DNA from: Octopus vulgaris
Taxonomy: Eukaryota
Direction of reading: 5' to 3'
Assembly: GCA_951406725.2 (NCBI GenBank)
Contig: OX597831.1
Span: 42,222,001 to 42,286,000, forward strand
Length of the DNA: 64,000 nucleotides
In this document: in pieces, positions 7,053 to 63,302 of the stretch
Layout of the letters: every line of letters starts with the position of its first letter
Position numbering within the stretch: position 1 is the stretch's first letter
Notes under the pieces: model-generated
What the model was told of the DNA's origin: nothing
Databases searched by the model: none
The model's input: the letters and a program-made list of their open reading frames with translations, nothing else
Program-made: the position numbers and the translations under genes

Positions 7053-8625
7053 TCTTGATTAACCACTCTCCTTACCAAAAGATTAACTCTTAAGCATTTA
7101 AACCGGCCATATCTGGCCTAAATATTCTACTTGTTTTATGTTTGAACCGATCAGATCTGAACCCTCATATTTATCTGACCATGTCATTCTAAAAATATAT
7201 AATCATATCAGTGAAATCTCACAGCAATGAGATAATGAATGATTAATTCAAAACAGTGTGAATAAATAAGCATTATATTTGATAGAATAACCTGAATGCT
7301 AAAGGGTTAAATAATCTTTGTTTGTAAACTCAGGAAAGCAGGAAACCAACAGAGTAAACTATAAATAAATTGGCTGAAGGGAATGAGAAACCACTGCCAT
7401 ATCTTTAACTGGAAAACTGAATCTTCAGGCTTTGGTATGGAGGGCCATGATTGCTGATGCCTTTAGATGTGGCATATAAAGTGAAAGGAAAATGAGTATG
7501 GTTCCGGGTTCAGTCTCATTGCGTGGAACCTTGGGCAAGTGTCTTCTACTATAGCCTCGGGCCGACCAAAGCCTTGTGAATGGATTTGGTAGGTGGAAAC
7601 TGAAAGAAGACCATCATATATATGTATGTGTATATATATATGTCCTGGCTCCTGTGCAGGTGGCACGTAAAAAACATCATTTGAGTGTGGCCATTGCCAG
7701 TACTGCTTGACTGGCCCTCATACCGGTGGCATGTAAAAGCACCCACTACATTCTCGGAGTGGTTGGCGTTAGGAAGGGCATCCAGCTGTAGAAACTCTGC
7801 CAGATCAAGATTGGAGCCTGGTGCAGCCATCTGGTTCGCCAGTCCTCAGTCAAATTGTCCAACCCATGCTAGCATGGAAAGCGGACGTTAAATGATGATG
7901 ATGATGAGGAGGAGGAGGATTTTCATTATTTCCCAAATCAGTTGAAACAAAGGCAGTGTGTTCCACCAGAAATATAGTAAGAAAATGATTAAACCAGCGT
8001 TTCTCAATGTTTTGACTTTGACACTCAATGGAAACCAAATAAAAATTTAAAAAGAAAGAATAAATGGGAAACTCGTTTTAAATTTTAAAATTAAGGAAAA
8101 TTTATAGGAAACAAAAGTCTACTTTCTTTTATTAATCATACATTGTGTTCAGCAAAATTATGATCAACACGTTTTTCAAGTCACACATTATGGATTTGTT
8201 TAAGCCTTAGATTATATTTTTTAGATATCTATGTCATACCTAGATAACCCACTATGGTGCATTGTCTGAGAAACATTGGCAATCTGTCAACATATACATA
8301 TAATAAGAATTGTATTGAGGTCACGAGGAATTCAAATTGATGTTATGATCGTTTCAGTAAATAAATATTTTTTTAATCCCGTACCACATGTATAGATAAG
8401 TAATATATATATATACAATAAATATAAAATGTAATAAAATAGAATAGAATAAAATTATTATTGTTTATTCACTTTGTCAGACATCATTATTCAAAATGCA
8501 ATTAAGAAACAAATATGCGATGCAAGGTAAATTTGTAACACTTCATAGGAGTGTTGAGTCCATTCAAATAGACAGGTTCATACATGAAGCGTTGATGAGG
8601 ATTATAATTATCCCCTCCATATGTA

Positions 8626-18422: not shown

Positions 18423-21338
18423 TTCTGTCTCTCATTACATAGCTCTTTCTCTCTCACTCTATCTCTGCACACACATATACAACTCTCTGTCTCTCTCTCT
18501 CTCTCTCACCACTTCTTTCTGCACAGCCTCCCTCTACCTTTGGACACTGCCCTCCCTTTCTCCCCCTCCCCCCCCTCCTCCACTGCTCTTTTTTCTCTTT
18601 ACAAACCTCTCTCTCTTTCCATTTGCTGTTTTCTTTCTCTCTCTCTGACTCTGTCCACCTTCTTTCTTCCTCTCTCTTATATCAAATATATTACAATTAG
18701 TTCCCCGTTTTATAGAATTCTGCTTCCATAAAAAAAAAAATGAGAATCTGTTGGTTTATAGATGGCAGTGCCAATAGTAGACGTTTTCTGCACAACACAC
18801 CACTGCTAAATATTAATAATAAAGAGCAAAAAAAAAAAAAAAAAAAAAAAGAAATCGAAAGAAAAGAAACAAACTGCTACAGAAACATTCCCCCTTTAAT
18901 TCTTCCTTGCCAAATCGAAAGGAAAATGGAAATTAAAAAAAAAATTATAACTCAATTTATGTTCCTGGAATATTCTGCTAATGATATAGCTGGTCTTAGT
19001 TGATAAAACAGAGATCATAATGACCAACGTTGCCACCATCATCATCATTGTTATCATCATCATCGTGACCACCATTACTGTTGCCATCACCACCACCACC
19101 ACTGTCATCACTGTCTTCATCATCATCATCACCACCACCATTATCATCACCATCACCACCATTACTGTCACCACCACCCACCATCACGATTATACCATCA
19201 TTGCTTGTAAAATTGCTCTGTTATCATCATTGGTAATATCATCATCGTTGTCATAACTATAATCGTTTGTCTCTATTATTGTAATCGACTGCACCTCCTC
19301 CCTCTCCACCGTCATTGCAATCATCAATATCTTAGTCTTAAAAATAATCATCACCGTCATCTCTGTGATTAGCTACATCAATTTGCGCTTCCACCTCTTC
19401 GTCTTCCTCCCATCTCCATCTTCATCATTGCCATCATCATCACTGTCATCATCATCATCACCATCATCACTTTCCTCCTCCTCTTCATCATTACTATCAC
19501 CATCATTGTCACCACCACCACCACCACCACCACCATCATCATCATATCACTTTCATTGTCACTATAATTATCCTACTTCTCCCTCATTGTCTTCACTGTA
19601 ATTATCATCCTCCTCCTTTGCATCATCATCATTCTCATCACCACCTCCTTGTTATCATTATATTATGACTGTGTGTCCACCACCATCATGGTCCTGATGA
19701 TGATGATGATGATGATCCTTACTGTGTTATTTACATTCAGTTTAATACCAGAGCATCCATATTTGTCTACATACAACCTGTTGTTAACAGCAAGTAGATT
19801 GAGAACATTGGTGAAAAAGACCAGGCCATTTCAGATTTATGTTTCATTCAAAATCTTTGTTCATATACACATCACACTGTTGAGGATAGGACATGAAACA
19901 CAAACCTCTTGGTTTGTAACCTACCACTCTATTGCCTTGGTCATTTACACTCCCCCCTCTTTCTCTCTCTATATATTTCTATATATATATATATCATCAT
20001 CATCGTTTAACGTCCGTTCTCCATGCTAGCATGGGTTGGACGGTTCGACCGGGGATCTGGGAAGCCAGAAGGCTGCACCAGGCTCCAGTCTGATCTGGCA
20101 GTGTTTCTACAGCTGGATGCCCTTCCTAGCGCCAACCACTCCGTGAGTGTAGTGGGTGCTTTTTACGTGCCACCTGCACAGGTGCCAGGCAAGGCTGGCA
20201 ACGGCCAATATCGGATTGGTGCATTTTACGTGCCACCAGCACGGAAGCCAGTCAAGGCGGCGCTGGCATCGGCCACGATTCGGATGGTGCTATATATATG
20301 TGATTTACAATCAAAGTGCAGAAATGGCATACTCTAAATGAATAGGGTGATGTAATCTGATTGTAGAAAGAATTTTGCGAATTCGGTACTCCAAAGCAAG
20401 TTGGAAGGATGAGGTTCTAAGTGAGCATGTGGTAAATAGTTAAGAAAAAACATGTAGAAAAAAGGACAAGAAAAAACAAGGACACCCTTTGGTCGTGAAT
20501 GACCATGGGATTGCGCCTAGAAAGTTATCCTCCGAGGCACAAGCCCTCCCCCACCAAGGCACAAGTCGCCCATGCATACTAGCTTTTCTTCTCTACAGCA
20601 CTGATGTTTTCATTCTGGTAGTTTACTTTGTATTTCAGCTCACATTGATTTGGCCTTCTCTTACAAGTTTATCCAATATGTGTGTGTGTGGATGAGTGAC
20701 TTTGTATTTTCCTTTCATCTTCCTGTAAGTCCACTGACTGTAAACAATGGCCTTGATGATGGTGTCCTTTGTTTCCAGTCCTCTGTGTAAACATGTTAGA
20801 AGATTATTGCCTTGCTTGGAAATAGAAGGTTGGCATCATGAAGAGCATTTGGCTGTGGAAGACTGCACCATTGTTCTCTCATCTGACCCATGCAAGCATT
20901 GAAAAGTAGATGTTAAAATGATGGTGAGAATGATGATGATAATGATATATATATATGTGCAAGGATGGCTGTTAATGCTGCATGGCTTCTAGGCAAAGGC
21001 ATAACTGTGTGATTTAAAAAGCTTGCTTTGCAATCATGTGGTTCTGGGTTCAGTCCTACTGTGGGGCACCTGGGGCAAGCATCTTCTACTATAACTCCAG
21101 GTTGACCAATACCTTTGAGTGAATTTGGTAGATGGAAACTGGGAGGAAGCCTGTTACACACATATACACACACACACATGTGTGTGTGTGTGTGTATGTA
21201 TGGGGTTTGTGTTTTGTTGTGTTTGTGCGTCACCTCTGCTTGACATCTGGTATTGGTTTGTTTACATTCCTGTGACTCAGCAGTTCAATAAAGAATGCTG
21301 CAGCATGGCCACAGTCAAATGGCTGAAATAATTAAAAG

Positions 21339-25726: not shown

Positions 25727-26568
25727 GTATATGTATATACACGTATATGTATATATACGTATATATATATATGTATATAAAATATGTTAATATATGCCTG
25801 TCTATTTACTGTAGAAAGAAAAAAAAAAAAAGGTCCATTTGTATAAAATTTCAGCTTTTGGTGTTTTTGAAAAAGAAAACTGTTGGGTTTCCAGGAAAGC
25901 ATTTTCCATTAGATTCTGTGTTTTGCTTCCTTCCTTTCCTTTGAAATTGTCAATATTTAAATTACATTCTTTTCGATTTATCTTGACTCATTTTACTCTA
26001 TTTCTTTTTTTTCTTTTTCTTCCTCCATTACACATCATCACACTTAGAAACCGAATGGATTTTCCCCCATGTTTCCAACAGTTGATGATTATATAATTAT
26101 CCAATCTTAATTCTATGCGCATTCTATCACACGTCTTTTTTATTCGTCCTTTATGTGACACGTTGCAGTACTTACACATTCAGGAATTTTGCTTTTAACA
26201 ATTTCTAAAGCCTCTACATTTATCATATATCTGATTGAGCCTCTATAAGTTTTGCATATTTTCTCTTCATCCTCATTCTTTTTCCTTTTCTTTTTTCTCT
26301 TTTTTTTTGTTGTACATTTGTTGTTATTGTATGTTTTATTATTAATTTGATATGTCCTTTTTTTTTTGTTGATTTAATTCGGTCAGAAAATCCAATATGT
26401 AACATCATTTCTGGCTGCTGTCAACTTGTCTTTTGAATATGATTTTATCTGATGAATAAAAAACATGGAATGGTTATTTTTATTATTATTATTATTATTA
26501 TTATTTGCTGATTCTGTTTTGATTTGTTTTGTTAACATATTTGAAGCTTTTTTTCCTTTCTGTTTCAG

Positions 26569-26661
26569 GGGGATCTGATGTATGGCGTATTACTGGGGAG
26601 GAGAGAGGAAAACATGACTCCCAGTTTTTCCTACTGAAACCTGTTAATGGCTTTATTACAG
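26569..26661 (+). CDS. ITSN1: Intersectin coding exon 2, 93 nt ([32 protein letters not shown]), start of EH domain 1
   Basis: TTTCAG acceptor and ACAG|GTAAG donor. The translation closely matches the intersectin N-terminus as I recall it (human [33 protein letters not shown]). Confidence 0.95.
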
Positions 26662-28416: not shown

Positions 28417-28480
28417 GGGAACAAGCCAAAGGTTTCTTTATGCAATCAGGACTTCCAACTGCTGTGTTAGGTCAGATATG
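28417..28480 (+). CDS. ITSN1: Intersectin coding exon 3, 64 nt (EQAKGFFMQSGLPTAVLGQIW), EH domain
   Basis: TTTTTCAG acceptor and TG|GTAAGT donor. Contains the EH signature SGLP...L.QIW and is phase-compatible with both neighbours. It is not in the ORF track frame. Confidence 0.95.
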
Positions 28481-29703
28481 GTAAGTAAAAATTTTAGAAA
28501 ATTCTCTTCACAAAGTTATAGATCCAGACGTATAACTATGTATTTTATCTGGCATCTTTTGAGTGTTGGGCGTCATGGAGGCAAGGTGGCTGTGAAAAGC
28601 ATTTTACGAGTGTTGGGCCTCACAGAGGCAACAACGAATGACCGAGACCTTTGGCATTATGCTGTTCTTGAGAAAAGACTCATCAAGCCAAGTAAAATCA
28701 CGATTGTGGCAGATACTGGTGTCATGCAAATGGCACCCATACCAGTGGCACATAAAAGCATTCATTTACACTCTCAGTGGTTGGCATTAGGAAAGGCATC
28801 TAGCTGTAGTAACCATGCCAAATCAGACTGGAGTCTGGTGCTGCCTTCCAGCTGCCAGCCCTTGTCAAACAGACATTAAATGATGATGGTGATGATGATG
28901 ATGATGATGATAACTCATTCAGTCTTTGAACTTTGGATTTAAAAGTTTAGAAGAGTTCTGAACAAATGTTTTATAGAGGATTGTAATGTCAATATGAAGC
29001 AATTCGATGGCCATTTCTGGAGTCCATTAGTCAGCAGGTATACATACATGTATACATACATATGTGTGTTTTTGTGTCTGTGTTTGTTCCCTACCACCAC
29101 TTGACAACTGGTGTTGGTGTGTTTATGTCCCTGTAACTCTTTTGCAAAAGAGATCAATAGAATAGGTACCAGGCTTAAAAAGAAATTAAGCACTGGGGTT
29201 GACTAGTTTGACTAAAATGTAAGGTGATGCCCCAGCATGGCCGCAGTCTAATGACTGAAACAAGTAAATATATATATGTGTATGTATGTATGTATGTATG
29301 TATGTATGTATGTATGTATGTGTGTGTGAGTGTGTGTATGTTTGTATGTCTGGATGTGTGCATGTATCTGTGTGTGTGTGTGTGTGACTCGTCTTGACAT
29401 TGCGTAATAGTTGGAAATGAGTGTCACTGTTGTCAAAGCAGTGTTATTCATTTCCAGCCTTAATGTGAAAATGTGTCTGGCTATGGGGAAATGTTACCTT
29501 GCTCGGAAACAGGTGAGGGCTGGGGACTTGAAGAGCGCTGGCCCTCAATAAATTCTGGCCAGTCTATGCAAGCATGTAAAATTGGACGATAAAAGTTTAT
29601 GATGATGATGAGATGACTTTGTTTAGAAAGCATTTACAAGTGATGAAAGTTGATAGAATTAATCTCACCACCACCACCTCTAGGCCCTTAGGTGCATTTA
29701 GAG

Positions 29704-30025
29704 CAGCGCAGGCCAACCTGAGGCCTGCAGGTCGCATGCGGCCTGCTGACTTTTATCTTGCGGTCCACTTGGTACGTTCCTGAAATGAGTTTATTTAAAC
29801 AAGCATTTAAAAAATTTTATCAAAAACTAAAGATGGTAATGAAAAGTAAAAAGAAAGATGCTACTGTTTTTGTAACAATAATATTTCATGTTGTATCAAT
29901 GATTGTTCGTTCATTATTGTAATGAGAAAACAAAATGCTTTCAATTCTATCAGTATACAAGTGGCCCTCAAAAAACTTTCTGTGATTAGAGTGTCCTACG
30001 AAGTAATTCCAGTTGGCCAGGCTTG
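29704..30025. mobile_element. hAT-type MITE
   Basis: Exact 8-bp TSD ATTTAGAG (29696-29703 and 30026-30033). TIR CAGCGCAGGCCAAC / GTTGGCCAGGCTTG. Confidence 0.8.
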
Positions 30026-30779
30026 ATTTAGAGTCTACTCAGTTTGGAGCATTTGCAAAGGTCCCTAATTTGAGCATGACCTATGAATTATGATTTCCTT
30101 CATTTCCCTATCACCAGTTTTTAGAGGTCTTCAAAAAGATCTTGGGTTGCTGCCCTTGGCTAAGCCAGTGAAAAGAAAAATCCCTCTTTCTTTATGACTC
30201 CTTTTTCCATGTTTCTTTTTGTCTCTCTCTCTCTCTCTGTCTTCTCACTCTCTCTTTGTCTACTCTCTCTCTCTTTGTCTCCTGTCTATCTGTTTCTGTC
30301 TGTCTCTCCTCTATGTCTTCTCTCTGTCCCCATTTTTGTTTATTGCCTCTCTGTTTGTCTCCTCTCTCTTTTTGTCTCCTCTCTCTTTCTGTCTCCTTTC
30401 TCTCTCTCTCTCTGTTTGTCTCCTTTTTCTCTGTCTCCTCTCTGTCTCTCTCTCTTTGTCTCCCATCTTTCTCTCTCTGTTTATCTCCCCTTACTCTCTG
30501 TCTCCTCTCTTTTTGTATCCTTTCACTTGCTCTCTCTCTCTCTCTCTTTCTCCTTTTCCCCCCCTCTCTCTCTCTTGTCTCCCCCCCTATCTCTCTCTCT
30601 TGTCTCCTCTTTCTCTCAATCATGCAGCATTACAAAGGTATGTAACACAGCTTGATAGAGAGATAAACATTCTCAGATAAAGCAAAATCACGAAGTCTGT
30701 TAGATATCATTTCTATTTTAATCTCATTTTACCTTGAGATCATGAATTGAGAGGCAAGTTAGAAATTTTGAAGTTTGCT

Positions 30780-31045
30780 TATACTTTTGGCATAGCCCAA
30801 ACCAGTTGGGCATCTGCCAAGATCACTTGGAGATTGAATGCATTCCACCAGCGTTATCCATGCGGAATACTCAAGATCACCTCCAGGGATAAAATCACAA
30901 ACTCTGAAGTCCTGACAAGGGTCAATCTGCACAGCCTGCAGGAGATTGTGGTCGATAGAAGAGGGAGACTTGCACATCGATGCTTCCAGCTGCCAGAAGA
31001 ATGTATACCTAAAGAGCTATAAAATAGGCACCTTGGTGGTAAGAT
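30780..31045 (+). mobile_element. RTE-clade LINE fragment (region C-terminal to the RT core)
   Basis: Translation RLNAFHQRYPCGILKITSRDKITNSEVLTRVNLHSLQEIVVDRRGRLAHRCFQLPEECIPKEL matches the RTE-type pattern FHQRCLR.IL.I.W.D.ITN.EVL.R...R.R..GH..R.P..R.PK. Confidence 0.75.
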
Positions 31046-33388
31046 GTGATTTTTGATGAAGATTTGGCTGTTATTACTAGCAGGTCAGGTGATCACGTAG
31101 ATAAGTATCTGAAGAATTTTGATACTTGTCTGGAATCTGACAGTGTTGATAACCCAGAACCCGGGCTGAGTGTTTCACTGGAAATACCCTATCTTTATAC
31201 CCTGCCAGGACTTTGGATATTTGGTAGCGGTTCATCAAATGTGATCAACAGAAAAATTCTCAGACTTAAAAATAATTATTGGGGTCAACTAAAAATATCT
31301 GGTCAAGGTAGTGCTCCAGTATGGTCACAGTCCAATGACTGAAATGATTAAAAGAGAGATAAAAGATTAATTATCTATATCTCTGAATCACTAATTATAA
31401 TAATTCATTATAACTGCATAGTCTCTAATCATCTGAACTACCAGAAGAACTTACAAGAATTCACAGATGGCATGTGTTGTTAGAATACCAATGAATTAAC
31501 TGAAGAGTCCAGTCCACAGTTCATGTCTTGCCACCAGTGTTGTACTCTGTCTCTGATAAGAACTTTCGATTAGCAACAACGGCATTGTTTCCTTTTGTTG
31601 TAAATTTTTGATAGAATCTACAAGGACATTGCATAATCTGGAGGAAGTATGTGGAAGCAGACATTGCGGTGTGGATCAGAAGTTCTGCTTCAAAACCCCA
31701 AGGTTGTGGGGTTTGATCTTGCAACACGGCGCTATGGGCAGGTGTCTTCTGTCATAGACTTAAGTTGACCAGTACCTTGCCATTTCTCCTCTGTGCTGTT
31801 CTCCATCATTAACACCTTGCTTATCTGCTATCGCCCTTGATACTCTCACATATCTACTGCAACCCCTGCTCCCTCCCTTCAAGCCTCCCAAAACGCTTCT
31901 GTATTTCTCTCCATTCATTTGCTGCAATGGCCTCTATCCTGAGCATTCATCCAGTCCAAACAACTGTATCACCTTACCTATTTCTCACCACCTGCAATGT
32001 CTTTAAGGTATCTTCTGGTACATCTTTACCATCATCTCTAACACTATCTTTAGCTTACTGTCAAACTCCCTTTCCTGTCTCTTCCAACTGAGGTATCCAT
32101 GTGCCTCCTCTACAGCAAGACACCTATCTCTGTCCCTCTGTAACTTTAATCTCTCATCAACTGGTACAAAACTGCCTCCACCTCAATAATACTTTTCTTT
32201 CCCAGTTGAAGGATTTTTGTCTTCTCAGTGATGGTGCCACATGAAAGGCACTGGTGGTGGTGCCATTAGGAAGGGTATCCAGCCACAGAAAGCATGCCAA
32301 AATAGTGAAGCTCCTGGTTTCCTTGGCATATAGGTTCCCCACCTGGATGGAACGCCGGTGAGCTGCTAGATACAGGAGGAAAGAGTGAGAGAAAGTTGTG
32401 GCGAAAGAGTCAGCAGAAGTTCGCCATTACCTTCTGCCGGAGTTGAATGGAGCTTAGGTGTTTCGCTCATAAACACACACATCGCATGGTCTGAGATTTG
32501 AACCCGTGATCCCTCGACTGCGAGTCTGCTGCTCTAATCACTAGGCCATGTGCCTCCACTTTGAACCAGAGTACTTTTGTAATATTTGTACTGCCCATGT
32601 TACACAGCTTCATCCTTGACACTCTCTCATTGTAACATTCAAGTGAATGTGTGGTCGACTATTTGGGAAATTATAACTTATAATGCAGTTCACCAATTAT
32701 GTCATAAAATAGAAAATATGTTTTTTTTTCTATCATTGTTGTAGTTATTTTATAATTGTAAATTGAAATCTTGTCATGGATGAACTAACTTCTGAAAAGT
32801 AGACTGGATACTGACAATAGCAATTATTATGAAAAGTCTGGGAACAAGTAGTTGATTATCAAGTATTTGTTGCATCAGTGTTTCTCATTCATTTGTGTTT
32901 TTAATATACAACATTTATGCTAACATGGGAAGGCAAATGTTAAACTTTGGCTGTGTGGTTAAGATGCCAACTTTGCAGTCGCATGGTTTTTGGGTTCAGT
33001 CCCACTTTATGACACCCCGGGCAAGTGTCTTCTACTATAACTCCAGGCTGACCAGTGCATTGTGAGTGAATTTGGTAGAGGGAAAATGTGTTAGCCCATC
33101 AAATGTATATATGTATGTTTTTGTGTCCCCCTCCCTGCTAGTCATTGCTTGACAAATGGTGTTGGTTTGTTTACAACTTTGTAACTTAGCGTTTTGACAA
33201 AAGAGGCAAATAGAATAAGTACCAAGCTGTAAGAAAGAAAAAAATAAGTATTGTGGGGTGATTTGTTTGACTAAACCCTTAAAGGTGGTGTCCCAGCTTG
33301 GCTGCAGTCCAATGATTGAAACAAGATATAAGACTAAATGAATGAAATAAAATGAATGAAAACAGTGTGATAAAGATGTGTTATATTG

Positions 33389-33617
33389 TTAACCCTTTCA
33401 ATACCAACCCGGTTGAAACTGGCTCTGGCTCTGAATACAAATGTCTTGTTTTCATGAGTTTTGAATTAAAATCTTCCACCAAACTTTAATCACAATTTAT
33501 GTTCCTAACACTAGCTGAATGATAACAAAGTTATTTTACTAAATTCTTTGTTATATTTCAAAGTAATTGAAAGAAACACAGAGCATCTCAAAATAAATAC
33601 AGTAACAAATGGGTTAA
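33389..33617. mobile_element. TTAA-flanked (piggyBac-like) MITE; related elements about 7083-7310, 11175-11403, 27405-27632, 41550-41768
   Basis: TTAACCCTTT...(A/T)GGGTTAA termini, about 225 bp. The copy at 11175-11403 is the reverse complement of this one. Confidence 0.7.
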
Positions 33618-36124
33618 AGAGATTTATTATTTTTCAGACTGTTAACACTATTAATGTCTTCTTCGGAGAGTTTAGACTTTTCTTTTTTTGTAAATAGGTA
33701 CATATATGGCTATGTGGTTAAGAAGCTTGCTTTCTAACCACATGGTTTCAAGTTCAGTCCCACTACACAGCTCCTAGGGCAAGTGTCCTCTACTATAGCT
33801 CTAGGCTGACCAATGCTTTGTGAGTGAATTTGATAGACAGAAACTGGTGGGGCAGGGTGAGACCTGATGTGTGTGTGTTGTGTACATGTGTGTTTGTTTG
33901 CTTCCCTGCCACTGTTTAGCTTATGCCCCTGTTGCTAAGCAATTTGGAAAAAGAGACTGATACAATAAGTAGCAGATTAAAAAAAAAGTATTAGTATCAA
34001 TTTGTTCAACTAAACCTATCCTAATGATGGCCTAGCATGGCCAGAGTCCAGTGACTTGAACAAGTAAAAGACAAAAAAACAAAAGATACTTCCACCCTGT
34101 TGCAATTGACTTATTGTCTCATTGGGTATCTTAATTGTGGATAAAGGAATCTTGTGATCGATTAGTTTTCATGACAAGTATTCCAACTGTTTGATCAACT
34201 GACCTGCCTGCACATTGGTTTATGGTATAAGTGGTTGAGTACTCCACAGATACTTGCACATTTAATGCAATCCCCATGTAGAATCAGACAAAGTGAGTGA
34301 TATGGAATGAGATGACTGGTTGCCTCTGGACACTAGTGCTTGGCATGGCTGGCTGGTTGGACATTCAGCCTGTTTTAGCTACACTCTGTTTTGGTGCTGG
34401 AGGCAAGCACACACCAACACACACTTGCACAACTATGTATGTGTAGAAATATACATGTATGGCAAGATGGACTGAGAAGGAGAGAGTCTGTGCAATTTAT
34501 TTATTGAACATAACTGGCAAACATTTATCCTTTCTGTGTGCTGCTGGACTGGCTCCTGTGCAGGTGGCACATGAAAAACACTATTTGAGCATGGCTGTTG
34601 CCAGTACTACCTGACTGTCCCTTGTGCCGGTGGCACGTAAAAGCACCCACTACACTCTCGGAGTGGTTGGCATTAGGAAGGGCATCCAGCTGTAGAAACT
34701 CTGCCAGATCAGATTGGAGCCTGGTGCAGCCATTTGGTTCGCCAGTCCTCAGTCAAATCGTCCAACCCATGCTAGCATGGAAAGCGGCCGTTAAACAATG
34801 ATGATGATGATGATGCATAATGACAAGGATGGTTATGTACATAGATTGAGAGAAAGGGAGTAGGGGGAAAGACGGGGAGAAAGGGAAGAGGGTGAGAGAG
34901 AGGGAGAATCATTAAAACAGTCTGATGTCAAATAAGTCAGTATCGAATCAGGGACACCAAATAGGCAGTACCAAAACAGCTGTGCCATGAAAAATTTCAT
35001 ACCCTGTACCACAGGTCTGGCCCTTTGAATTGAGGGTACAACCCATGAGACTGGCTTCCACACAGTTTCCATCTATGTCATTTCACCTACATAGCCTAGG
35101 TTGACCTATGGCCATGATAAAAGAGAGTTGTCCTGTAATACAGTGCTGTGGGGTCAAACCCAGGACCTCATGGTTGCAAAGCAAACTTCTTACTGACTCG
35201 GCCATTCCTATGCTCATTGCATATATTGTAGCAGATTAGATATGAACCAGGAACCATTAATTTTAAATCAAGAATAATGATGCAAATATATTCATCCACT
35301 TGACAGAGGATATATATGAGGGGGTGGTGAAAAGTTACTGGCTTTGGGTAAAAGAAAATACATGAGGATCAGTTAATTATAATTCTATACAACATATTCC
35401 CCTCAAAGATTCACGCACATATTGCAGTGGTCCTTCAGTTATTCTAAACCCTATAAAAGATCTCAGAAGATTGGGCCTCCAACCAGTCCTTTTGTGATAT
35501 CCTTAAAGCCAGGAACTTTGAAACACCCCCTCATATCTTCCTTAATATATCTATTGTTTGGTTAAGCTGTTTGCTCTTATGTAGCATTGTCTGTTGACGA
35601 CATTTTCCCACTCTACTTGACTCTAGACTGCTTCTTCTACTTCTCTCCATTTGGAAACCTGGTTTTTCAGCTCTGACTGATAGATTTCCAACTGATAAGG
35701 GAACCGCTCCAAGATTTTGTTGGGTTTGAATTCTTATTAATGCTTCTGTAACTTTGTATTTTCCTATGTAGTGATGTTGGCCCTACACAAGCCCATTTTT
35801 ACCTGAGGGAAGAAGTGGTTCATATTAATCTGGCCTCTGTCCGTTGACATGGCCAGTATGGGAGCTTGCAGTCCATTGGCATAGCTCTCAGGCACATTGA
35901 AGTATATAAGCCACCACACCCCAACAAGGACTAGAGCTTGTGTTAGACTTTATTGTTTGGTAGTATTGGCCAACCAAAACCTTGTGAGGGGGTTTAGTAG
36001 ACAGAGACTGTGTGGAAGCTTCTCATACTTATATATACTTCTGGTCATTCCAAAACATAACTACATGTGGACAGTTGGCGATTTTTTTTTCTCTTCCTTT
36101 TCTTTTGGATTTTCCTACGTCTTC

Positions 36125-36161
36125 TGTTACCGAAGAAGAGCTTTGCTCGAAATGTAAAACA
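36125..36161 (+). ncRNA. Minimal hammerhead-like motif with extra A after the core
   Basis: TGTTA-CCGAAGA-A-GAGC-TTT-GCTC-GAAA-TGTA-AAACA, inside an approx. 210-bp element (36065-36275). A related fragment lies inverted at about 55780-55870. Confidence 0.5.
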
Positions 36162-38871
36162 ACCACTTTTTCTTCCCTTCTCTGAGCATCTTATTAATAA
36201 TTTGCATGTACCACATCCTCACATTGTTGTTTTTTTCTTGTCTTTTTTCTCCGTTTTTTTTTTTATTAACTATGCACACACACACATACACATATATATA
36301 TATGCCTTTGCCCATATGCATGTATGTATACATACACACACACACCACCATCATCATTTAATGTCTGTCTTCCATGCTGGCATGGATTGGATGGTTTGAC
36401 AAGATCAGATGACCCAAAGATCTGTCCTAAGCTTCATTGTCTGCTTTGGCATGGTTTTTATGGCTGGATGCCAACCATTTTACAGACACACACACATATG
36501 CACACATATGCACACATACGCACACATACACACACACATAGACACACACACATAGACACACACACACACACACACACACACTTGTGTTTGTCTCCATCCC
36601 CACCACTTGACAAGTGATGTCGGTTTGTTTACATCCCTGAAACTTAGTGGTTTGACAAAGAAACCAATGCAACAAGTACTAAACATCAAAAAGAAAGTAC
36701 TGGGTCAGTTGTTTTTGACTAAAACTCTCCAAGATGCTGACCCAGCATGGCTGCTGTCCATTGACTGAAGCTAGTAAAAGATGAAGGATAAAATTCAAGC
36801 TGAAAGAACATTATTATTGTTGTTGCTCATTTGTTTGTAATTAGTTGTTAAATCTGCTGATTGGTTCCTCCATGACTGGTTGCTTAATTAACGTTCCTGT
36901 TTGTACAAACATTTGATATTTAGCAGCTGACACACGACACATACATGCATGCAAGTACATGGAAACACACACACACGCATGCAATTACTTATTTATGCAA
37001 GATGTGCATGCTCACACATTTATGCAACATATGCACACAACTCGTACACATGCTCAGTGATGCAACATCTATGCATAGACATGCAAGCGTTTATTGATGC
37101 AAGATAAACACACACACATACACACACATAACACAAGCACACAAATGCTCACTGATGCAGCACATATGCATATACACATGCACAGATTTTTGCAATGCAT
37201 ACACACACACAACTCAAATGCACATGCTCGGTGATGCAACATATATGCACACACATGCAAGCGCTTATTGATACAAGATAAATGTATGCACTTAACACAA
37301 GCACACATATACTCATTGATGCAGTGCATATGTATACACACATGCACAAATTTGTGCAACACATACACACAACTGAAACACACATGCACAGTGATGCAAC
37401 ATATATGCACACACATGCAAGCATTTATTGATGCAAGATAAACATACACACATAACTCATGCTCGGTGATGCTCACTGATGCTGCACACATTCATACAGA
37501 TTTTTGCAACTTGTGCACACACACCTGATACACATTAGTACTCACTGATGCACACACACACATACACACAAATATTCATGCATTTATTTATTTATTTATT
37601 TGTACATAAACATTTCATGCACATGCTCATTGGTATAGCACACATGCACACAACAAAGCTGCTTGCTTATTGACATAACACATGCATAAACACTCGGAAT
37701 ACATGTATAGACACTCACATGTACACATGCATACACACACATCCAACACAGTGTTTCAATACACACTACACCCTTGCACATACTCAACATACATACATAC
37801 AAACAGTCACAGAACACATGCATATACCTGCAGAACACATACACACACACTCAACACAGTGCTTGCACTCATACTCACATACACACTCAACACAGTGTAT
37901 GCACATATTCACACACACACAACATAGTGTACACATACACACATGCATACACACTATTGACACAATGTACACATGCCTTCACACTACATGTATGTGTACA
38001 GTGTGTCAATAGTGTGTATGCATGTATGCACATGCATATATACATGTATGCACATGCATATATACATGTATGTACATGTATATACACATGCATTGCACAA
38101 GCATATACACATGTATGCATATGCATATACATCTACACACCTGCACACTCACAAAAACACAACGCACACATACACACCATACCTGCATAACATACATACA
38201 CACATCACAACACACACACATACACTCAACACAATGTGCAAATTGCAATATGCACACACACACATGCTGCTGCTGCTACTATTACTACTACTACTACTAC
38301 TACACACAAACTTCCCCCATTTGTTCCCTAACTCCATAAAATTGATATGTATAACGTATTCCATTATTTCCAACTATTGTCATTGTTGTGTCTTGTTTTT
38401 ATTATCTCTGCAATTTATTTCCATTCTTTAGAATCTTCCAGTTAATTTCTCATCAGTATTGGTTCTGCCACACACCTTGCATAATTGAAACTAGAAATTG
38501 ATCATTATTATTTTCTTTTCCTTGCTAATTTCTAGAATTTGAATTGCATAAACACACACAAATAAATAAATAAATAAAGATAATAAAAAAAAAAAACAAC
38601 CCTTCTTAATAATTTGAATTACATAAATGAAAAAGAAAAACTAAAAATATCTGCATCCCCCAAAATGTGAAATTACAAGAAGCAAAGAAAAAATACATGT
38701 AAAATATAATGGGTATTAAATGGTATAGGCAGTGCTCCAGCTTGGTCTAAGTCCAGAGAACTAAGACTATGTTAAAAGAAAATAAACATTTTTTTAATGT
38801 TAGTCTGAGGAGTGGTAGAAATGTTAATATGCTTTCCCAACCATTCTTTCTCTCCTTCTTGCTGCAGGTGA

Positions 38872-39000
38872 AGCTGTGAGCTTCATCCATTAAGATGGTG
38901 TAATAGTGTCATCATCATCGTTTAACGTCCGCTTTCCATGCTGACGTTAAACGATGATGATGACACTATTACACCATCTTAATGGATGAAGCTCACAGCT
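38872..39000. repeat. Perfect 58-bp inverted repeat with 13-nt loop
   Basis: 38872-38929 is the exact reverse complement of 38943-39000. Confidence 0.95.
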
Positions 39001-39242
39001 AGTGTATTGTGTCTAATCTTTATATTCCATTGGCCAAATAGCTAACTATATGTATGTATGTATGTAGACAAGGGGGTGCTGAAAAGTTTCTGGCTTTATG
39101 GGTATTGTGTAAGGCCTGGTTGGAGGCCTAACCTTCTGAGTTCTTTTACGGGGCTTAGAAAATCTGACTTTGCCTTTCATCGTTTTGGGGTCGATACAAT
39201 AAAATACCAGTCAAACACTGGGGTTGATGTAATTGACTAGCC

Positions 39243-39557
39243 CAGGAGTTGGGGAACTTTTTTAGCCAATTATACCAAAATATATTTATTTACACCAATG
39301 TTACCCCTTTGGTTTGAAAGGAAGAAAATCATAGATTCTTTGAATTCAAAAGATCTATTGAATCTATTTGGCATGGCATCTCCTAAACATGTCCATTACA
39401 TTGGACAGATGCAGTGTTGTCAGAAGAAAAATTTCTGTTGTAACAAGGAACACGTTTTTTTTATATAATTTTACTTACATCTAATGAGTCCTCATTACCC
39501 CCAAGGATTTCATTTTTACCCCACTTAGGGTAATTTACTCTGGTTTGCCGAACCCTG
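39243..39557. mobile_element. hAT-type MITE inserted into a SINE
   Basis: Exact 8-bp TSD GACTAGCC (39235-39242 and 39558-39565). TIR CAGGAGTTGGGGAAC / GTTTGCCGAACCCTG. Confidence 0.85.
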
Positions 39558-40501
39558 GACTAGCCCCTCTGTTCTTCAGAATTTCAGCCCTTGTACCTAT
39601 TGTAGAAAGAATTATTATTGTATGTTTTGGTCAGAGACTGAAAAATAAGAATGATTAATATAGTTTTAAGCTGGTCATTGTAATGTATCCTGCTTTGTAA
39701 ACTTCATGTTGAGTCAGATGCAAGTTAGTAATAAAAATCTATATAATTCTAGGCCTTACAACTTTGGCCATACATGCATCTGCTATTGTTACTATGGTTA
39801 CAGAGTAGGAAATAGCTTGGAGAAAATCCATGGTGGATTAGTTAGTTCTGGTGAAAATTAATTGCTGTCAGTTTGTATCTGTTCTTAAGTTTAAAGAAAG
39901 GCAGTTAGAGAGAATAGGTTTACTGGTTCGCTTTGTATGTTATTTTGATATTGTTTCTGCCGGAAGCAGAATAGTTTCTATATAGGTTGCTTTTTTTCTA
40001 CCAAGTCAATATATTATCATCATCACCACCACCAGCATTGTTGTCATTTCTGGTCATTGTCATCATCATCATCATACAGATATATGATGGTGTACAATCT
40101 TTATTACAAATGGGTATTGAGCACTTGTTTTGGTTCATAGAAACAATAACCTAATCTCTCTCACTCTCTCTCTTTCTTGCATTTTTTTATCTTGTACTTC
40201 TTTCAGTCATTGGACTGTGACCATGCTGGGATACTGCCTTGAAGGGTTTAGTCAAATAAATCAACCCCAATACTTATTTTTAAGCCTGGTACTTTTTCTG
40301 TTGGTCTCCTTTGTTGAACTGTTAAGTTATCGGGACATAGGCCAAACTTGGTTGTCACTCAGTGGTGGTGGAGGCCAAACACAAGCACGTGCACACACAC
40401 ACACACACACACACACATGGCAGTCCATAGCTCCAAGAGGCCATCACCTCTAGCTAGCTATGAACAGACGGTCAGCAGTGACACCTGCTGGGTTCGGCTG
40501 C

Positions 40502-40544
40502 TCAACATTGATAAGGGGCAAATACCCCGAAACTAGTCTGTAGA
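40502..40544 (+). ncRNA. Minimal type I hammerhead ribozyme-like motif (U3-A8 core variant)
   Basis: TCAACA-TTGATAA-GGGG-CAAATA-CCCC-GAAA-CTAG-TC-TGTAGA. Stem I pairs 5/6, stem II is a perfect 4-bp GC stem, stem III is palindromic (ACTAGT), and the cleavage triplet is GUC. Confidence 0.7.
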
Positions 40545-40810
40545 TGCCAGACCAGCAAGGGGATGTGGCTGACCACCCCCCCCCGTTTGAAGGTTGTAAT
40601 GGATATGGGTTCGTATGTTACATAGCTAGCTAGAGGTGATGGTCTCTCGGAGCTAATCAATGGTAGCATTCATCCTATTTTCCTGGACTACCATGGTGAT
40701 AACTATTAATATCCAGTACCGCTGCCATAGTCTCCTATAGAGAGACTTAGAGATATTAATCTTTCTATATATATATGCCTATATATATATATATATATAT
40801 ATATATCATC

Positions 40811-40842
<32 letters not shown>

Positions 40843-43299
40843 TATGTAAACATACATATACATACACACACACATGTATATATTTATTTATTTATTTATT
40901 TATTTATTTATGTCTACCCCTGTCTATCTGTGAGACAGTCTGTCTGATCTAGTTCAGATCTGGCAGATAGACAGCCAGCCAGCCTACCTGCCTTCCTGCC
41001 TGCCCAGCCACTTGCTGTAAATGTAATCTTGTAATCTTCAGGTAGATTATCAGTTTGTCATTCTTTGAGAAAGTGTTGCTTTGGAGTCACAGTTATGGTG
41101 GCTTAATGGATTTAAGTCTTCATTATCAAATATATATATATATTTTTTAAAGAAAGATAAAGTTGATAAGGAGGGATTTTATGGAGATTTGACTGCTATT
41201 TCAAGCAGGTTGTTCAACAATCATAAAGAGGCTTAGAAGATCTACTGGCTAGGAAACATATGTAGCCTGAATTTTACCTGTTCTATTCCTTCAATTTGGA
41301 TATACATACATATATATATGATCCGCTGGAAATGAAGCTAGCATGATCTGCTGGATGTGTAATATCAGTGTGCACACACGACAGAGTGTAAGAGCCCTGA
41401 GAGAAATGCTGGACATAAGAAGCATTGGCTGTGGAGTGCAAGAGAGACTTTTGTGCTGGTATGGTCATGTACTACGGATGGGTCTTGTTGGTGATGACAA
41501 CAATAGCGAAGAGATTGTCTGATATATGAAAAGAAAATACCTAATCATTAATGCTTTAGTATCCAGTTTACTATCACATGTAATGCTTATTTATTCACAT
41601 TGTTTTTAATTATGCATTATCTTGTAACTTGTTGATTTTGATGGTGTGATTGTCTTTTTTTTAGAATGACATTGTAGAATAAGTGTGAGAGGCCTAATCT
41701 GGACTGTCACATAAAGCAGGTAGAATATTTGGGCGAGATATGGCTGGTTTAAATGCTAAAGATGTAAATTTACATGACTAAGCACTGGCATGACTGTGTA
41801 GTTAAGAAGCTCGCTTTGTAACCATGTCATTTCAGGTTCTGTCCCAATGCATGGCACCTTGGGCAAATGTCATCAACTATAGTCCCAGGTAGATCACTGC
41901 CTTGTTAGTGAAGTTGGTCAATGGAAACTGTATGAAGCCTGTTTGTGTGTGTGTGTCTTCTCCGCCGTTGCTTGACAATTGGTGTTGGTTTGTTTATGTC
42001 CCTGTAACTTAGCAGTTTAGCAAAACGGGCCAATAGAGTATATACCAGATTTTAAAAAAATCAAAAGACGAATGACAAAGACAAAACATAAAAGTACCAG
42101 GTCAAATAAACCTTTCAAAGTAGTGCTCCAGCATGGCTACAATCAAGTGACTGAAACAAATAAAAGAATAATGTAGAAATGCTACATCATTTAGTTTCCT
42201 TGTAACAGATAAAACATCTAAGGAGAGAATTCATTCATTTTTTTTTTTGGTTATATTTTTCAATTGATTTTTTAAATAAATTTAAAGTAAATATTTATCT
42301 TTAACACAATAAAACAATCAAATAAATAAACAACCACATTCAAAAGCAACAATGACAAAAAAGAGTGAAGGCCACTATAGATAATGTAGTATTAGGTGCA
42401 TTGTCTTAATATAAGACAGGATGGTCATGGCTGGAATGAGTTTAATAATAGGTGTATTTTTATTAGAATGTAGAGAATTGGCAGAGTCAGTTGGTTGAAA
42501 TGCCTTAAAGCTTACAGTATTTATCCTGACTTCTTGCATTCTGAGCTCAAATCCCATCAAGGTCGTTATTATATCCATGCATGTTAGCTCTGTCTGTCTG
42601 TCTGTCTGTCTGTCTTTTTCATAAATATAGAAACAAAATAAGTTTATCAATAGACATGTGATGAAGTAGTGAAAGCTGATCTATGAATTCATGGAGGAGA
42701 TGACAAAGGACTAGGACAATTGATGATCTGGTACTGTAGAAAACCTGCTCATTCTGCTGAAACTGAGGTTCTGGTAGCTTAATGTGTATATGTAAAACAA
42801 AGCCACTTGTCAAGATTTTCCCCACTATCCTTGTCTCTTGCCTAATTGCAGTGTTCTGCTACTGCAATGAAATTAGGGCAGAACTATCCTACCGTCTTTT
42901 TTCGGTAATACCAATTATTTATCTTACCATCCAGAACCACTTCATTTTACATTCAACCCTCATTCTTAACATTGCCCCTCTCCATTCACATTTTACATTG
43001 ATCACTTCACCCTTCTTTGCTACACCCACTCATCATCATTGTGATGAGTGGGTATAGATAGCATAGAAGGTTGGCATGATCATCATCATCAATTAACATC
43101 CTTTTTCTATTGGATAGTTTGACAAGATCTAGTGAGACACAGGGCTGTGCTGAACTCTGGTGTCAGCTGTGGCATGGCTTCTACAGTTGGATGTCCTCCC
43201 TTTCTAATGCCAACCTGTGACAAAACACTCCGTGATAAATGAATTTCTGTGTTTTATTGTCAGTCCTTGCTGTAAATGTTTTTTTTTCCCCTCTTCCAG

Positions 43300-43508
43300 G
43301 ACTCTTGCTGATATGAACACCGATGGGAAGATGGACAAGAAGGAGTTTTCGATAGCCATGCATCTCATCAAGAAAAAACTACAGGGTTATGAGCTACCCA
43401 AATCGCTCCCTGCTAGTCTAAAAGCTGACCCTTCAGTAATGGTTAACTCTTATGGAATGGGTCAGAATATCAATCAACAGATGACTATGCCAATGGCCAT
43501 GACAAGCG
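43300..43508 (+). CDS. ITSN1: Intersectin coding exon 4, 209 nt (W-TLADMNTDGKMDKKEFSIAMHLIKKKLQGYELPKSLPASLKADP...MTS), EH domain EF-hand and C-terminus
   Basis: CTCTTCCAG acceptor and G|GTATGT donor. EF-hand loop DMNTDGKMDKKE followed by FSIAMHLI..KLQG..LP..LP, typical of intersectin EH1. Confidence 0.96.
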
Positions 43509-44369: not shown

Positions 44370-44690
44370 TATATGATGGCTGCTTCCTTGCTCTTGAGTA
44401 TAGTCATTGCTTAAAGCAATTCATGACCAGTCTCATGTCTCTAACAACACTAGTCACTTGTTGGTCACCGTACACTTTCATGTGATGTTGCAAGCCTGCT
44501 GCTGGTAGACAACTGTTACCACATACATGGCATGTTGTTATGCTGTTGTGTATGGTGTAATCCAAGCGAGCTGTCTGTATGTGGCTTCTATTGTGACTTT
44601 TCGTCCCTGCTCTGCTGAAGTAGACTCTCCCACATTCGCATCTCAGCTCACTCTGGTCACCCACATTTTTCATTGGTATCAATGGAATTT
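44370..44690 (-). mobile_element. LINE 3' end fragment with C-terminal C2H2-type zinc fingers (RTE-like)
   Basis: The minus ORF contains CECGRVYFSRAGTKSHNRSH and CHVCGNSCLPAAGLQHHMKV. No splice context, and it is embedded among other repeats. Confidence 0.6.
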
Positions 44691-44694
44691 GTAG

Positions 44695-45085
44695 TTGTGG
44701 TACCAGTGCTGGTGGCACATGAGAGAACTATCCGAATGTGGCCGTAGCCAGCACCGCATCGACTGGCCTCCTTACTGGTGGCACGTAACAAACAGCATCC
44801 GATCGTGGCCATTGCCAGCCTGTCCTGGCCTCTGTGCCGGTGGCACGTAAAAAGCACCATCCGAGCATGGCCGTTTGCCAGCCTCGTCTGTCACCTGTGT
44901 CGGTGGCACATAAAAAGCACCCACTACACTCACGTAGTGGTTGGCATTAGGAAGGGCATCCAGCTGTAGAAACACCGCCAGATCTGACTGGCCTGGTGCA
45001 GCCTTCGGGCTTCCCAGACCCCAGTTGAACCGTCCAACCCATGCTAGCATGGAAAGCGGACGTTAAACAATGATGATGATGATGA
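44695..45085 (+). mobile_element. Non-LTR retroelement 3' tail family ending in (GAT)n; copies about 7645-7905, 19995-20292(-), 28560-28910, 34545-34815, 36350-36485(-), 50772-50930, 53125-53250, 59090-59230(-)
   Basis: Shared GTGGTTGGC.TTAGGAAGGGCATCCAGCTGTAGAAA...CCATGCTAGCATGGAAAGCGGACGTTAAA(C)GATGATGATG end, with variable 5' truncation and internal GGTGGCACGTAAAAAGCA repeats. Confidence 0.8.
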
Positions 45086-45087
45086 TA

Positions 45088-45311
45088 CATACAAGGGGGT
45101 GCTGAAAAGGTCTTGGCTATAAGGGTATCACAAAAAAACCTGGCTGGAGGCCCAACCTTCCTTGTTCTTTTACAGGGGTTAGGGAGACTGAAGGACCACT
45201 GCCACAAGTGTGTGAATCTGAGAGGGGAATATGTTGTATAGAATCAAAATTAGCTGATCTTCTTGTATTTTATTTTACTGGAAGCCAGGATCTTTTCAGT
45301 ACCTCCTCGTA
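45088..45311. mobile_element. Mariner-derived MITE family; other copies about 9404-9611, 35315-35536 and partial 39067-39165
   Basis: TIRs TACAAGGGGGTGCTGAAAAG..CTGG / CCAGGA.CTTTTCAG.AC..CCTCGTA with TA ends. Four homologous copies. Confidence 0.8.
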
Positions 45312-48878: not shown

Positions 48879-49716
48879 TAAGGTGCATTCCGAAAGTTTT
48901 GAGATGTTTTCAAAGAAGTACACAACTCTAATCTCCTTCCAAATAGGATCCAACTTCAATGCACTTGTTGTAGCACTCCAGTCACTTTGTGATGGCCCCC
49001 ACAGAAGTCCTCAAAAGTGAAGGTGTCCAGGACTCTTGTCAAACCCTACTTCATCTTATTCATCAGCTTGGGGGACAATCAAATGCCACAGTGAGTGAGG
49101 TCTGGATGGTAGGGAGGATGAGAGACAGTTTTGATGTTCATCTCTGTCAAATAGTTGGTTACCAGGATGAAATTGTGAACTAGTGTATATGATGTGGCCT
49201 TTTGCAATGAAGTACCTTCCTGAATTCCTTCAAAACTGTCTCAAAGTACTTTTTGTTGACCATTTGGCTAGAGGGAACCCAGTGGATGTATATGATGCCA
49301 TTGCTGTCGTAAAATGGTATCATCATGAGCTTCCTAGTAGACTTGCTTTGCCTGGCTTCTTGTGCCAGTGAAAAACTTGCTTAACTCATACAAGTTAATC
49401 CATAAGCACTCTGGAACATTTTGTAAGTTGTTGAAGCATTTTTACCCAGTTTAACTCAAAACTTTATTGCTGCTTTTGTTAGCTTACAAATTGTTTTCAT
49501 ATCCTGACTGCTTTCTGCAAATTTGTGAGCTTTAACAGGCAGTGTTTAGTAAGGGGTTGTTCAGAGTACCGTTACAGCCATCTCCTGTTTGCAATAACAA
49601 AAGTTAGCAGGTCAGCTTATTAGATGCATAATAATGATATGATGAAATTAAAATAATCTCGGACAGTTATAACTGCCTCTCCTAATAAACATCTCAAAAC
49701 CTCTGGAATGCACTGT
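48879..49716 (-). mobile_element. Decayed, internally deleted mariner (Tc1/mariner) transposon
   Basis: TIRs GGTGCATTCCGAAAGTTTTGAGATGTTT / AAACATCTCAAAACCTCTGGAATGCAC. The minus strand encodes transposase remnants KKARQSKSTRKLMMIPFYDSNGIIYIHWVP..QMVNKKYF and PPYHPDL (a YSPDLAP-like motif). Confidence 0.85.
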
Positions 49717-50262: not shown

Positions 50263-51026
50263 AAATTACATACCCAATGAACACTAAGCCAGTGAACTTG
50301 CTTTGCTGGCAAACTACCAGGTGTATACCATATGGTTTATTAAATACTTATATATATATATGTATCAGGAAAAGGTTTTTATATATATATATATATATTC
50401 ACAAGGAAAAGGTTGGTTCTTTGAAATTTTGGCTTATAAGCCATCTTCAGACAGTCTGTTGATGGCTAGTACGCCAAAACATAAAAGACACTTTGTCCTT
50501 TCCCTTGTAAAAATTAATAAATATGTTCTCTACTAAAATGTATTGCGTGATACTTCAGTTCCATGTTAAATTGTTTTTGTAACTTCACATAGAAGCAAGC
50601 ATTGATAAATTATATATTTTTACATATGTGAATATATTTAGATATATGCCAATATAAGTATGTATTATGTATGAATGTATGTGTGTATTTATGTGCACAA
50701 GTGTATGTGTGTCTATATATCTATATTTATATCTGTCTGTCCGTCTCTCTGTCTATATATATATATATATAGAGTGGTTGGCATTAGGAAGGGCATCCAG
50801 CTGTAGAAACATTGCCAGATAAGACTGGAGCCTGGTGCAGCCTTCTGGCTTCCCAGATCCCCGGTCGAACTGTCCAACCCATGCTAGCATGGAGAACGGA
50901 CGTTAAACAATGATGATGATGATGATGATGATATATATATATATATAAATAGATATTAATATACACACATGTATATATAGATATTTAGATATATGCCTAT
51001 ATTTAGATGTTGTGTGTGTATGTATG

Positions 51027-63162: not shown

Positions 63163-63302
63163 TATATAGGTATGTTGGTGCAAGCAAGAAAAATAGAACT
63201 CAAATTATGAGTATGTGTATATTTTTTATTAATATTTAGTTTGATAAGTGCCAATGCATGAAATTCTCGAACCTTGAGTCACTCTGTTACATCTGCTACA
63301 TA

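Follow-up and report, generated by a model that had tools for sequence, protein, structure and literature searches.

What is a hammerhead ribozyme motif with an exchanged core pair doing in an intron of an octopus intersectin-like gene? An earlier note on this DNA, the 64,000-nucleotide stretch of the Octopus vulgaris genome analysed here (hereafter the window, whose numbering is used throughout), had described an element of about 230 bp with inverted termini, enclosing an apparently intact hammerhead that would cut the intron. We compared the motif with its relatives elsewhere in the genome. Our reading, which we hold with considerable confidence, is that the window copy is old and 5'-truncated, decays neutrally and belongs to a ~361-nt non-coding repeat family (family A) that carries a type I hammerhead with a family-wide U3-A8 core, and that it was likely inserted in trans by a Penelope-like, probably Neptune-clade, reverse transcriptase-endonuclease.

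The hammerhead motif of the window copy

The motif occupies the positions first given for it, with ACA at 40505-07, TTGATAA at 40508-14, GGGG at 40515-18, CAAATA at 40519-24 and CCCC at 40525-28, followed by GAAA at 40529-32, CTAG at 40533-36, TC at 40537-38 and TGT at 40539-41. Its parts are as follows:

40502..40544, + strand: type I hammerhead (motif reading, family comparison)
40502-07/40539-44, + strand: helix I, 6 bp in the family, with an A·A mismatch at 40504/40542 (fourth pair)
40508..40514, + strand: core strand U3-U4-G5-A6-U7-A8-A9, with U3 at 40508 and A8 at 40513 (motif, family counts, sister family)
40515-18/40525-28, + strand: helix II, GGGG/CCCC, with loop CAAATA
40532-37, + strand: helix III, palindromic
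40538..40539, + strand: predicted cleavage site after C17 (inferred from hammerhead numbering)

A Watson-Crick pair between positions 3 and 8, GAAA and UH characterize a type I hammerhead, and the window copy has U3-A8, GAAA and UC. It is a type I hammerhead with a U3-A8 core, as first recognized, and its self-cleavage is predicted. The description "apparently intact" applies to the core but not to helix I, where the family has six base pairs and the window copy has A·A at the fourth. In helix III, two pairs enclose a centre of 2 nt, a layout that does not allow closure within a monomer; the helix is palindromic in both haplotypes and, judged from its letters, could form between two copies. 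No Rfam hammerhead match was found in the window, in 40300-40800 or in 40480-40570, either at the gathering score or with E up to 10, likely because the core is a variant and helix III is short. A relaxed scan gave a second, loose hammerhead-like match on the + strand at 63238-63283 (TTGATAA ... GAAA), which has weak stems and is probably due to chance.

Anatomy of the insertion

Comparison with the family majority sequence showed that the insertion consists of a 5'-truncated ~361-nt non-coding unit with an inverted fragment at its 5' end, so that its parts are these:

40417..40768, + strand: whole insertion, family A copy (BLAST against the family majority sequence; sequence reading)
40462..40768, + strand: forward arm, unit positions 50-360, 84% identical to the family A majority (BLAST)
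40428..40462, - strand: inverted arm, unit positions 205-239, formerly read as the left "terminal" arm (BLAST)
40417..40428, - strand: outer remnant of the inverted arm, unit positions about 268-280 (direct comparison)
40713..40768, approximate, + strand: ~56-nt "tail" between two fixed 3' ends at unit positions of about 304 and 360 (locus comparison)

Forward and inverted arms stand back to back, about 28 nt having been deleted between the two inverted pieces. The forward arm stops at the "long" 3' end of family A, and microsatellites flank 40417-40768, (CA)n on one side and (TA)n on the other. The inverted arms first described are present: 40428-40462 and 40621-40655 are complementary at 94% over 35 nt, or at 91% over 44 nt with a gap. 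They are not termini. They pair because both represent unit positions 205-239. An element of about 230 bp with inverted termini had to be given up, as homology extends past the right arm by 113 nt, to 40768, and inverted internal unit sequence makes up the left arm.

A family of protein-free repeats

The hammerhead family to which this copy belongs is free of protein-coding sequence and numbers at least several hundred copies in the genome. A search of the 2.8-Gb genome returned 2128 initial candidates, of which 40 were scored. Exact matches numbered 145 for a 30-letter ribozyme pattern, 513 for an 18-mer of the ribozyme and 282 for a 28-mer outside it, all three being lower bounds on the family A copy number, and the reversed controls gave 0 in each case. 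Because the two ribozyme patterns matched 145 and 513 times against none for their reversed controls, the motif is not a chance occurrence.

The unit is ~361 nt long and non-coding with a GC content of 44.6%; the unit of a sister family (family B, see below) is likewise non-coding, at 357 nt. Circular folds of the majority units are predicted to be more stable than those of 40 shuffled sequences (z -7.5 for A, -7.1 for B). The family A monomer is predicted to be 60% paired in a fold common to family B: 86 of 102 mapped pairs are kept, 11 of them through double changes, and 16 are broken, where partners slid along the sequence keep 31-50%. In one contig set of uncertain kind, family-like contigs were found at less than 99% likeness; none ran across the window copy, and one weak backward joint had a depth of 2.3. 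A literature search found no paper on family A, which may already be catalogued in Repbase or Dfam.

Origin of the U3-A8 core

Is U3-A8 a compensated pair or the result of decay? To read positions 3 and 8, we used 88 loci picked by the 28-mer outside the ribozyme, after removal of two overlapping duplicates from 90. In these, the pair was U-A in 60/64 copies, C-A in 4/64 and C-G in 0/64. The earlier note had suggested a BLAST search for other copies and had named an unconserved TTGATAA, with stems that do not covary, as the outcome that would speak against it. The search returned U3-A8 as the family consensus and not as a sign of decay; the core is conserved and the stems covary.

Family B was reached by a search for canonical cores with a CAAATA loop, which gave 34 matches; two of the 30 that were read were homologous to the family A unit beyond the ribozyme. 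There were 2225 initial candidates for family B, whose layout is the same as that of the family A unit, and 242 of 369 columns (66%) are identical between the families. Among family B copies, which had been selected for likeness to a C3-G8 copy, C3 is present in 28/31 and G8 in 29/31. With a homologous sister family that has C3-G8, the family-wide U3-A8 is therefore a true compensatory change, as the earlier note had supposed. CpG decay was considered as the origin of C3U or G8A and rejected: neither base lies within a CpG in the sister family. Family B (L181-L210), with its unit of ~357 nt, has a variable loop II (CAAUUA, CAACUA) and, in common with family A, the two 3' ends and the terminal palindrome.

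Families A and B come apart (100/100) in a tree of 41 rows, for which 10 were drawn from each group. Since this tree is unrooted, the direction from C3-G8 to U3-A8 is read only from a third family, whose helix II is that of families A and B and whose core is C3-G8. This third family (L064-L067, L071, L074, L078, L079, L081, L085-L088) is older, with G7 and a longer helix III.

Helices I and II are supported by covariation as well, the window copy having one helix I mismatch. In a hand-picked alignment of 13 rows, four of the six helix I pairs change on both sides, as does the 3-8 pair. Within family A, pair I.3 of helix I is G-C in 42/61 copies and A-U in 10/61, and pair 10.1-11.1 is A-U in 37/67, G-U in 25/67 and G-C in 2/67. 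Because relatedness inflates the shuffle control of the 13-row alignment, we count its two-sided changes as a few events; on the family tree, each compensatory change amounts to a single event or a handful and not to many independent ones.

The centre of helix III is TA in 39/76 family A copies, AT in 32/76 and something else in 5/76, so that the palindrome exists in two versions, ACUAGU and ACAUGU. The swap from TA to AT was one event in the youngest subfamily, whose mean divergence is 3.3%, with one copy at 0%. Retention of the palindrome through this swap is of consequence only for a helix III formed by two ribozymes together, and both versions are consistent with cleavage as a dimer. The suggestion that cleavage would require a dimer joined through ACUAGU thus gains from the family comparison, as a prediction from conserved letters.

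U3-A8 cores (UUGAAAA, UUGACAA) with the helix III palindrome ACCGGU were also seen in unrelated repeats (L244:1675 and 1901; L255:6595; L248:867). L244 is a back-to-back inverted pair; the repeat of L255 is found within the intersectin gene in antisense orientation. U3-A8 seems to be common in this genome.

Selection and decay

The earlier note had taken the double change as a sign of selection on catalysis. This stands at the level of the family, where core and stems covary, but not at this locus, since copies, once inserted, lose bases of the core as fast as those of the rest of the unit. In the sampled family A copies, the core differs from the majority at 34/850 positions (4.0%), and the rest of the unit at 775/19106 (4.1%; Fisher p 1.0); no locus-level selection on the core was seen in this comparison. 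The core is intact in 35 of 56 sampled copies, and core and stems together in 17 of 56. Selection worked on the source lineage, and inserted copies decay neutrally.

The tree groups the window copy with the most diverged subfamily (98/97), from whose majority it departs at 16 of 152 positions (10.5%; subfamily mean 6.1%). Its A·A at the fourth pair of helix I occurs in one of 63 copies sampled at that position. In contexts of 139-600 nt, helix I pair probabilities are 0.2-0.3 for the window copy versus 0.8-1.0 for the family majority.

Host gene and cleavage of the intron

The host is an intersectin-like gene on the + strand, as first described, and the hammerhead is sense to its pre-mRNA:

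28481..43299, + strand: host intron of the intersectin-like gene, 14.8 kb (exon homology; splice sites read from sequence)
28417-28480 and 43300-about 43508, + strand: exons flanking the host intron

Exon peptides from 26565-26657 and 43304-43432 match Intersectin-1 EH1 best (E 7e-8 and 5e-13), and a second EH match as well as SH3-like and DH-like exons follow downstream. The intron had been numbered 3; it is an intron of an intersectin-like gene, and the number applies only if exactly one exon precedes 26569.

Over 294 kb, made up of the window, the 200 kb downstream of it and the 30 kb upstream, no second sense-strand copy of family A or B was found, and the two related motifs in this region are antisense. 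One diverged family B copy lies antisense in the intersectin gene (L260:3218-3491). Minus-strand frames at 49059-49380 of the window are a possible decayed transposase, presumably of the mariner type, which they resemble by motif. Another interspersed repeat, GC-rich and with near-identical translations, occurs at 7550-7890, 20000-20340, 44660-45240 and 50716-50984.

Could the window copy still act as a ribozyme within the intron and cut intersectin pre-mRNA, be it as a monomer, with the help of a protein, or by pairing in trans with abundant family RNA? Its sense orientation, intact core and stable, G-C closed helix II (pair probability 0.98) would suit such a function. In addition, it has been reported that related mussel and axolotl ribozymes with a two-pair helix III partly cleave as monomers (PMC7229834) and that a ribozyme of a Penelope-like element (PLE) is protein-assisted (PMC11167929). 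We consider this reading distinctly unlikely, however: the intact core is one that 35 of the 56 sampled copies keep anyway, the centre of helix III has only 2 nt, helix I carries a mismatch found in 1/63 copies, divergence is 10.5% against a subfamily mean of 6.1%, and a cis partner is absent from the 294 kb. Cutting of the intersectin intron is thus a claim that we could not support; for a lone copy, 10.5% diverged, with the A·A mismatch and with no sense partner in 294 kb, it is unlikely. As the window copy would require a second hammerhead in order to cut, it is probably inert in the pre-mRNA.

Insertion footprints and mobilisation

How, then, did the unit come to be inserted? We examined 143 loci, obtained by removing seven duplicates from 150 and partly selected by likeness to the window or by the ribozyme pattern. 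An inverted piece was present in 68 of the 143, and in 67 of these 68 the 5' ends of the arms meet. Head-to-tail junctions were seen in 42/143 loci and two same-strand hammerheads in 2/143. Outer 3' ends fall at two sites in 183 of 214 cases, 99 at unit positions 298-312 and 84 at 350-360, and a microsatellite adjoins 81/183 of these fixed 3' ends versus 168/2129 random flank positions. The 64 inverted insertions comprise 43 with one long and one short end, three with two short ends, one with two long ends and 17 with an eroded end.

There was no pile-up of 5' ends at the cleavage site in the 143 loci, the 130 ends being scattered over the unit, and the insertions therefore give no sign that cleavage happens. 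Long tandem arrays were not seen in the 143 loci or among the first 100 of the 513 18-mer matches; those first 100 included two unit-spaced ribozyme pairs. Two loci (L269, L270) have two full ribozymes 341-365 nt apart and are likely the kind of source from which copies come.

Four features make up the anatomy of Penelope-like elements described by Craig et al. (2021, PMC8557442), and family A shows all of them: partial tandems, a copy that is inverted and 5'-truncated, a one-sided tail and a bias towards microsatellites. The tail of these elements corresponds to two internal starts of reverse transcription, and a hammerhead of one such element is reported to be dispensable for insertion in vitro (Frangieh et al. 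2024, PMC11167929).

Candidate helpers exist in the same genome. It encodes intact 781-aa frames with reverse transcriptase and GIY-YIG domains and a CX4CXXC linker, which likewise end in (TA)n; the linker motif is assigned to Neptune elements in PMC8557442. A Pfam search for GIY-YIG gave 6136 initial candidates, of which 150 were scored and 30 loci read. In 19 of these 30, a minimal hammerhead-like motif with a U3-A8 core follows, 18 times with the palindrome ACAUGU and always with a weak A-U helix I. The autonomous elements (L241:430-885 and 5217-5672; L217-L240) have the minimal motif in their pseudo-LTRs, an upstream open frame of about 350 codons and many near-identical intact copies. The unit had no homology to autonomous Penelope-like elements in the 30 GIY-YIG loci and five longer stretches, where short matches at chance level and one nested copy were seen. 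As no sequence is common to the unit and the autonomous elements, the helper is a candidate only, and the autonomous partner may lie outside the set sampled from the 6136 initial candidates.

The family A unit has no reading frame, and Penelope protein fragments lie near 5/213 hammerhead loci. Family copies were noted beside or within decayed Penelope frames (L043:1775-2092; L050:2664-3029; L103:1080-2722; L193:832-1299); in L043, the copy is preceded directly by a reverse transcriptase fragment of like orientation that adjoins its 5' end, through nested insertion or template switch.

The same footprints would be left by a still undiscovered autonomous Penelope-like element whose pseudo-LTR is the unit and whose 5'-truncated ends are the copies. 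Retrozymes are derived from pseudo-LTRs in bioRxiv 10.64898/2026.07.22.740005, and the protein fragments near those five loci fit as well. Beyond unit position 1, however, copies enter the end of another unit and not a frame (26 exact junction matches; 42/143 loci), family B has the same closed unit, and the hammerhead of the autonomous elements examined is a different, minimal one within pseudo-LTRs unrelated to the unit, which leaves this origin very improbable.

Least of all, and with hardly any chance of being right, a MITE of ~230 bp might have enclosed the hammerhead by chance between terminal inverted repeats: 35-nt arms at 94%, TA at each outer end and a strong fold (z -9.4) would fit, but the query matched from position 1 to 228 in just 3 of the best 30 loci (the window copy among them), homology runs 113 nt past the right arm, inversion points vary between loci, and the family alignment led us to reject a MITE/TIR transposon, as copies have no common fixed terminal inverted repeats.

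Comparison with known systems

Family A is an element of the non-LTR retrozyme type, and both natural U3-A8 cores and a Penelope link have already been published. Animal non-LTR retrozymes include Mytilus families of 350-390 bp and axolotl families of 331/353 bp (Cervera and de la Pena 2020, PMC7229834); for retrozymes, Li et al. (2026, bioRxiv 10.64898/2026.07.22.740005) describe both solo copies and an origin from Penelope elements. Like the retrozymes of PMC7229834, family A has a non-coding unit within 150-450 nt and with GC under 50% (44.6%), and a type I hammerhead with a 6-bp helix I, a 4-bp helix II and a short palindromic helix III. Further likenesses to non-LTR retrozymes are head-to-tail copies, a highly paired (predicted) circle, co-occurring Penelope-like elements and many solo copies, of which the window copy is one: a solo derivative of a retrozyme-type family. 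Unlike the Mytilus and axolotl families, family A has a U3-A8 core and consists mostly of dispersed monomers and partial tandems, with no long arrays seen among the loci examined. A further difference is its explicit Penelope-type ends, with 5' inversion and two fixed 3' ends; a word search of PMC7229834 and 10.64898/2026.07.22.740005 returned no relevant passage on such ends.

The Cercyon Penelope elements of Schistosoma mansoni have a minimal U3-A8 hammerhead with about 1,300 matches (Cervera and De la Pena 2014, PMC4209133). Family A resembles Penelope-like elements in its U3-A8 core, its palindromic helix III and the dimer model (PMC4209133), in opposite-strand pairs 100-700 bp apart (PMC4209133, PMC8557442, PMC11167929), and in its partial tandems, inverted 5'-truncated copy, optional tail and microsatellite bias. 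It differs in that its helices are canonical in size, unlike those of minimal Penelope hammerheads, that its tail is about 56 nt compared to 30-40 nt, that it has no reading frame, and that it has no homology to the autonomous Penelope-like elements examined. C3/G8 covary to U3/A8 in several natural ribozymes, and covariants are active in vitro (Perreault et al. 2011, PMC3088659). In comparison with these natural and engineered 3-8 covariants, both states occur here in sister repeat families of one genome.

A proposed route of insertion

Under our preferred reading, insertion of a family A unit by a Penelope-like enzyme acting in trans, loci that hold at least two units (L019, L269 and L270, for example) would be transcribed as sources, and two hammerheads would pair through the helix III palindrome and release a unit-length RNA that is probably circularised. 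The Penelope protein would nick AT-rich or microsatellite DNA, and each of the two ends of the insertion would have its own fixed internal start of reverse transcription, one at about 304 and the other at about 360. The use of two starts would leave the arms back to back, one of them carrying the ~56-nt tail, and longer runs of reverse transcription would yield head-to-tail partial tandems. The window copy would be such a back-to-back product, with its left arm eroded afterwards.

We also put forward a more specific version, itself rather unlikely, in which Neptune-type Penelope enzymes carry a lineage of circular-RNA retrozymes that has no detectable sequence in common with them, through the two-site priming that also makes the Penelope tail. 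The core pair of this lineage would have switched from C3-G8 to U3-A8, as in the dominant autonomous Penelope family of this genome, and the palindrome of its youngest subfamily from ACUAGU to ACAUGU, as in the autonomous elements. If the match in palindrome and core is not a coincidence, retrozyme and helper RNAs might pair through helix III as mixed ribozyme dimers; the palindrome would then be the means by which the parasite recognizes its helper or its own kind.

Significance

The intersectin-intron locus is itself ordinary. Families A and B, however, are a natural experiment, with C3-G8 and U3-A8 cores on the same scaffold. Together with the three versions of pair 10.1-11.1 (G-C, G-U and A-U) and the two helix III palindromes, they offer direct tests of core tolerance and of dimer cleavage. 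For the open proposal that animal retrozymes are moved by Penelope enzymes, the insertion ends provide support at the genomic level, and the intact candidate helpers in the same genome make this proposal testable.
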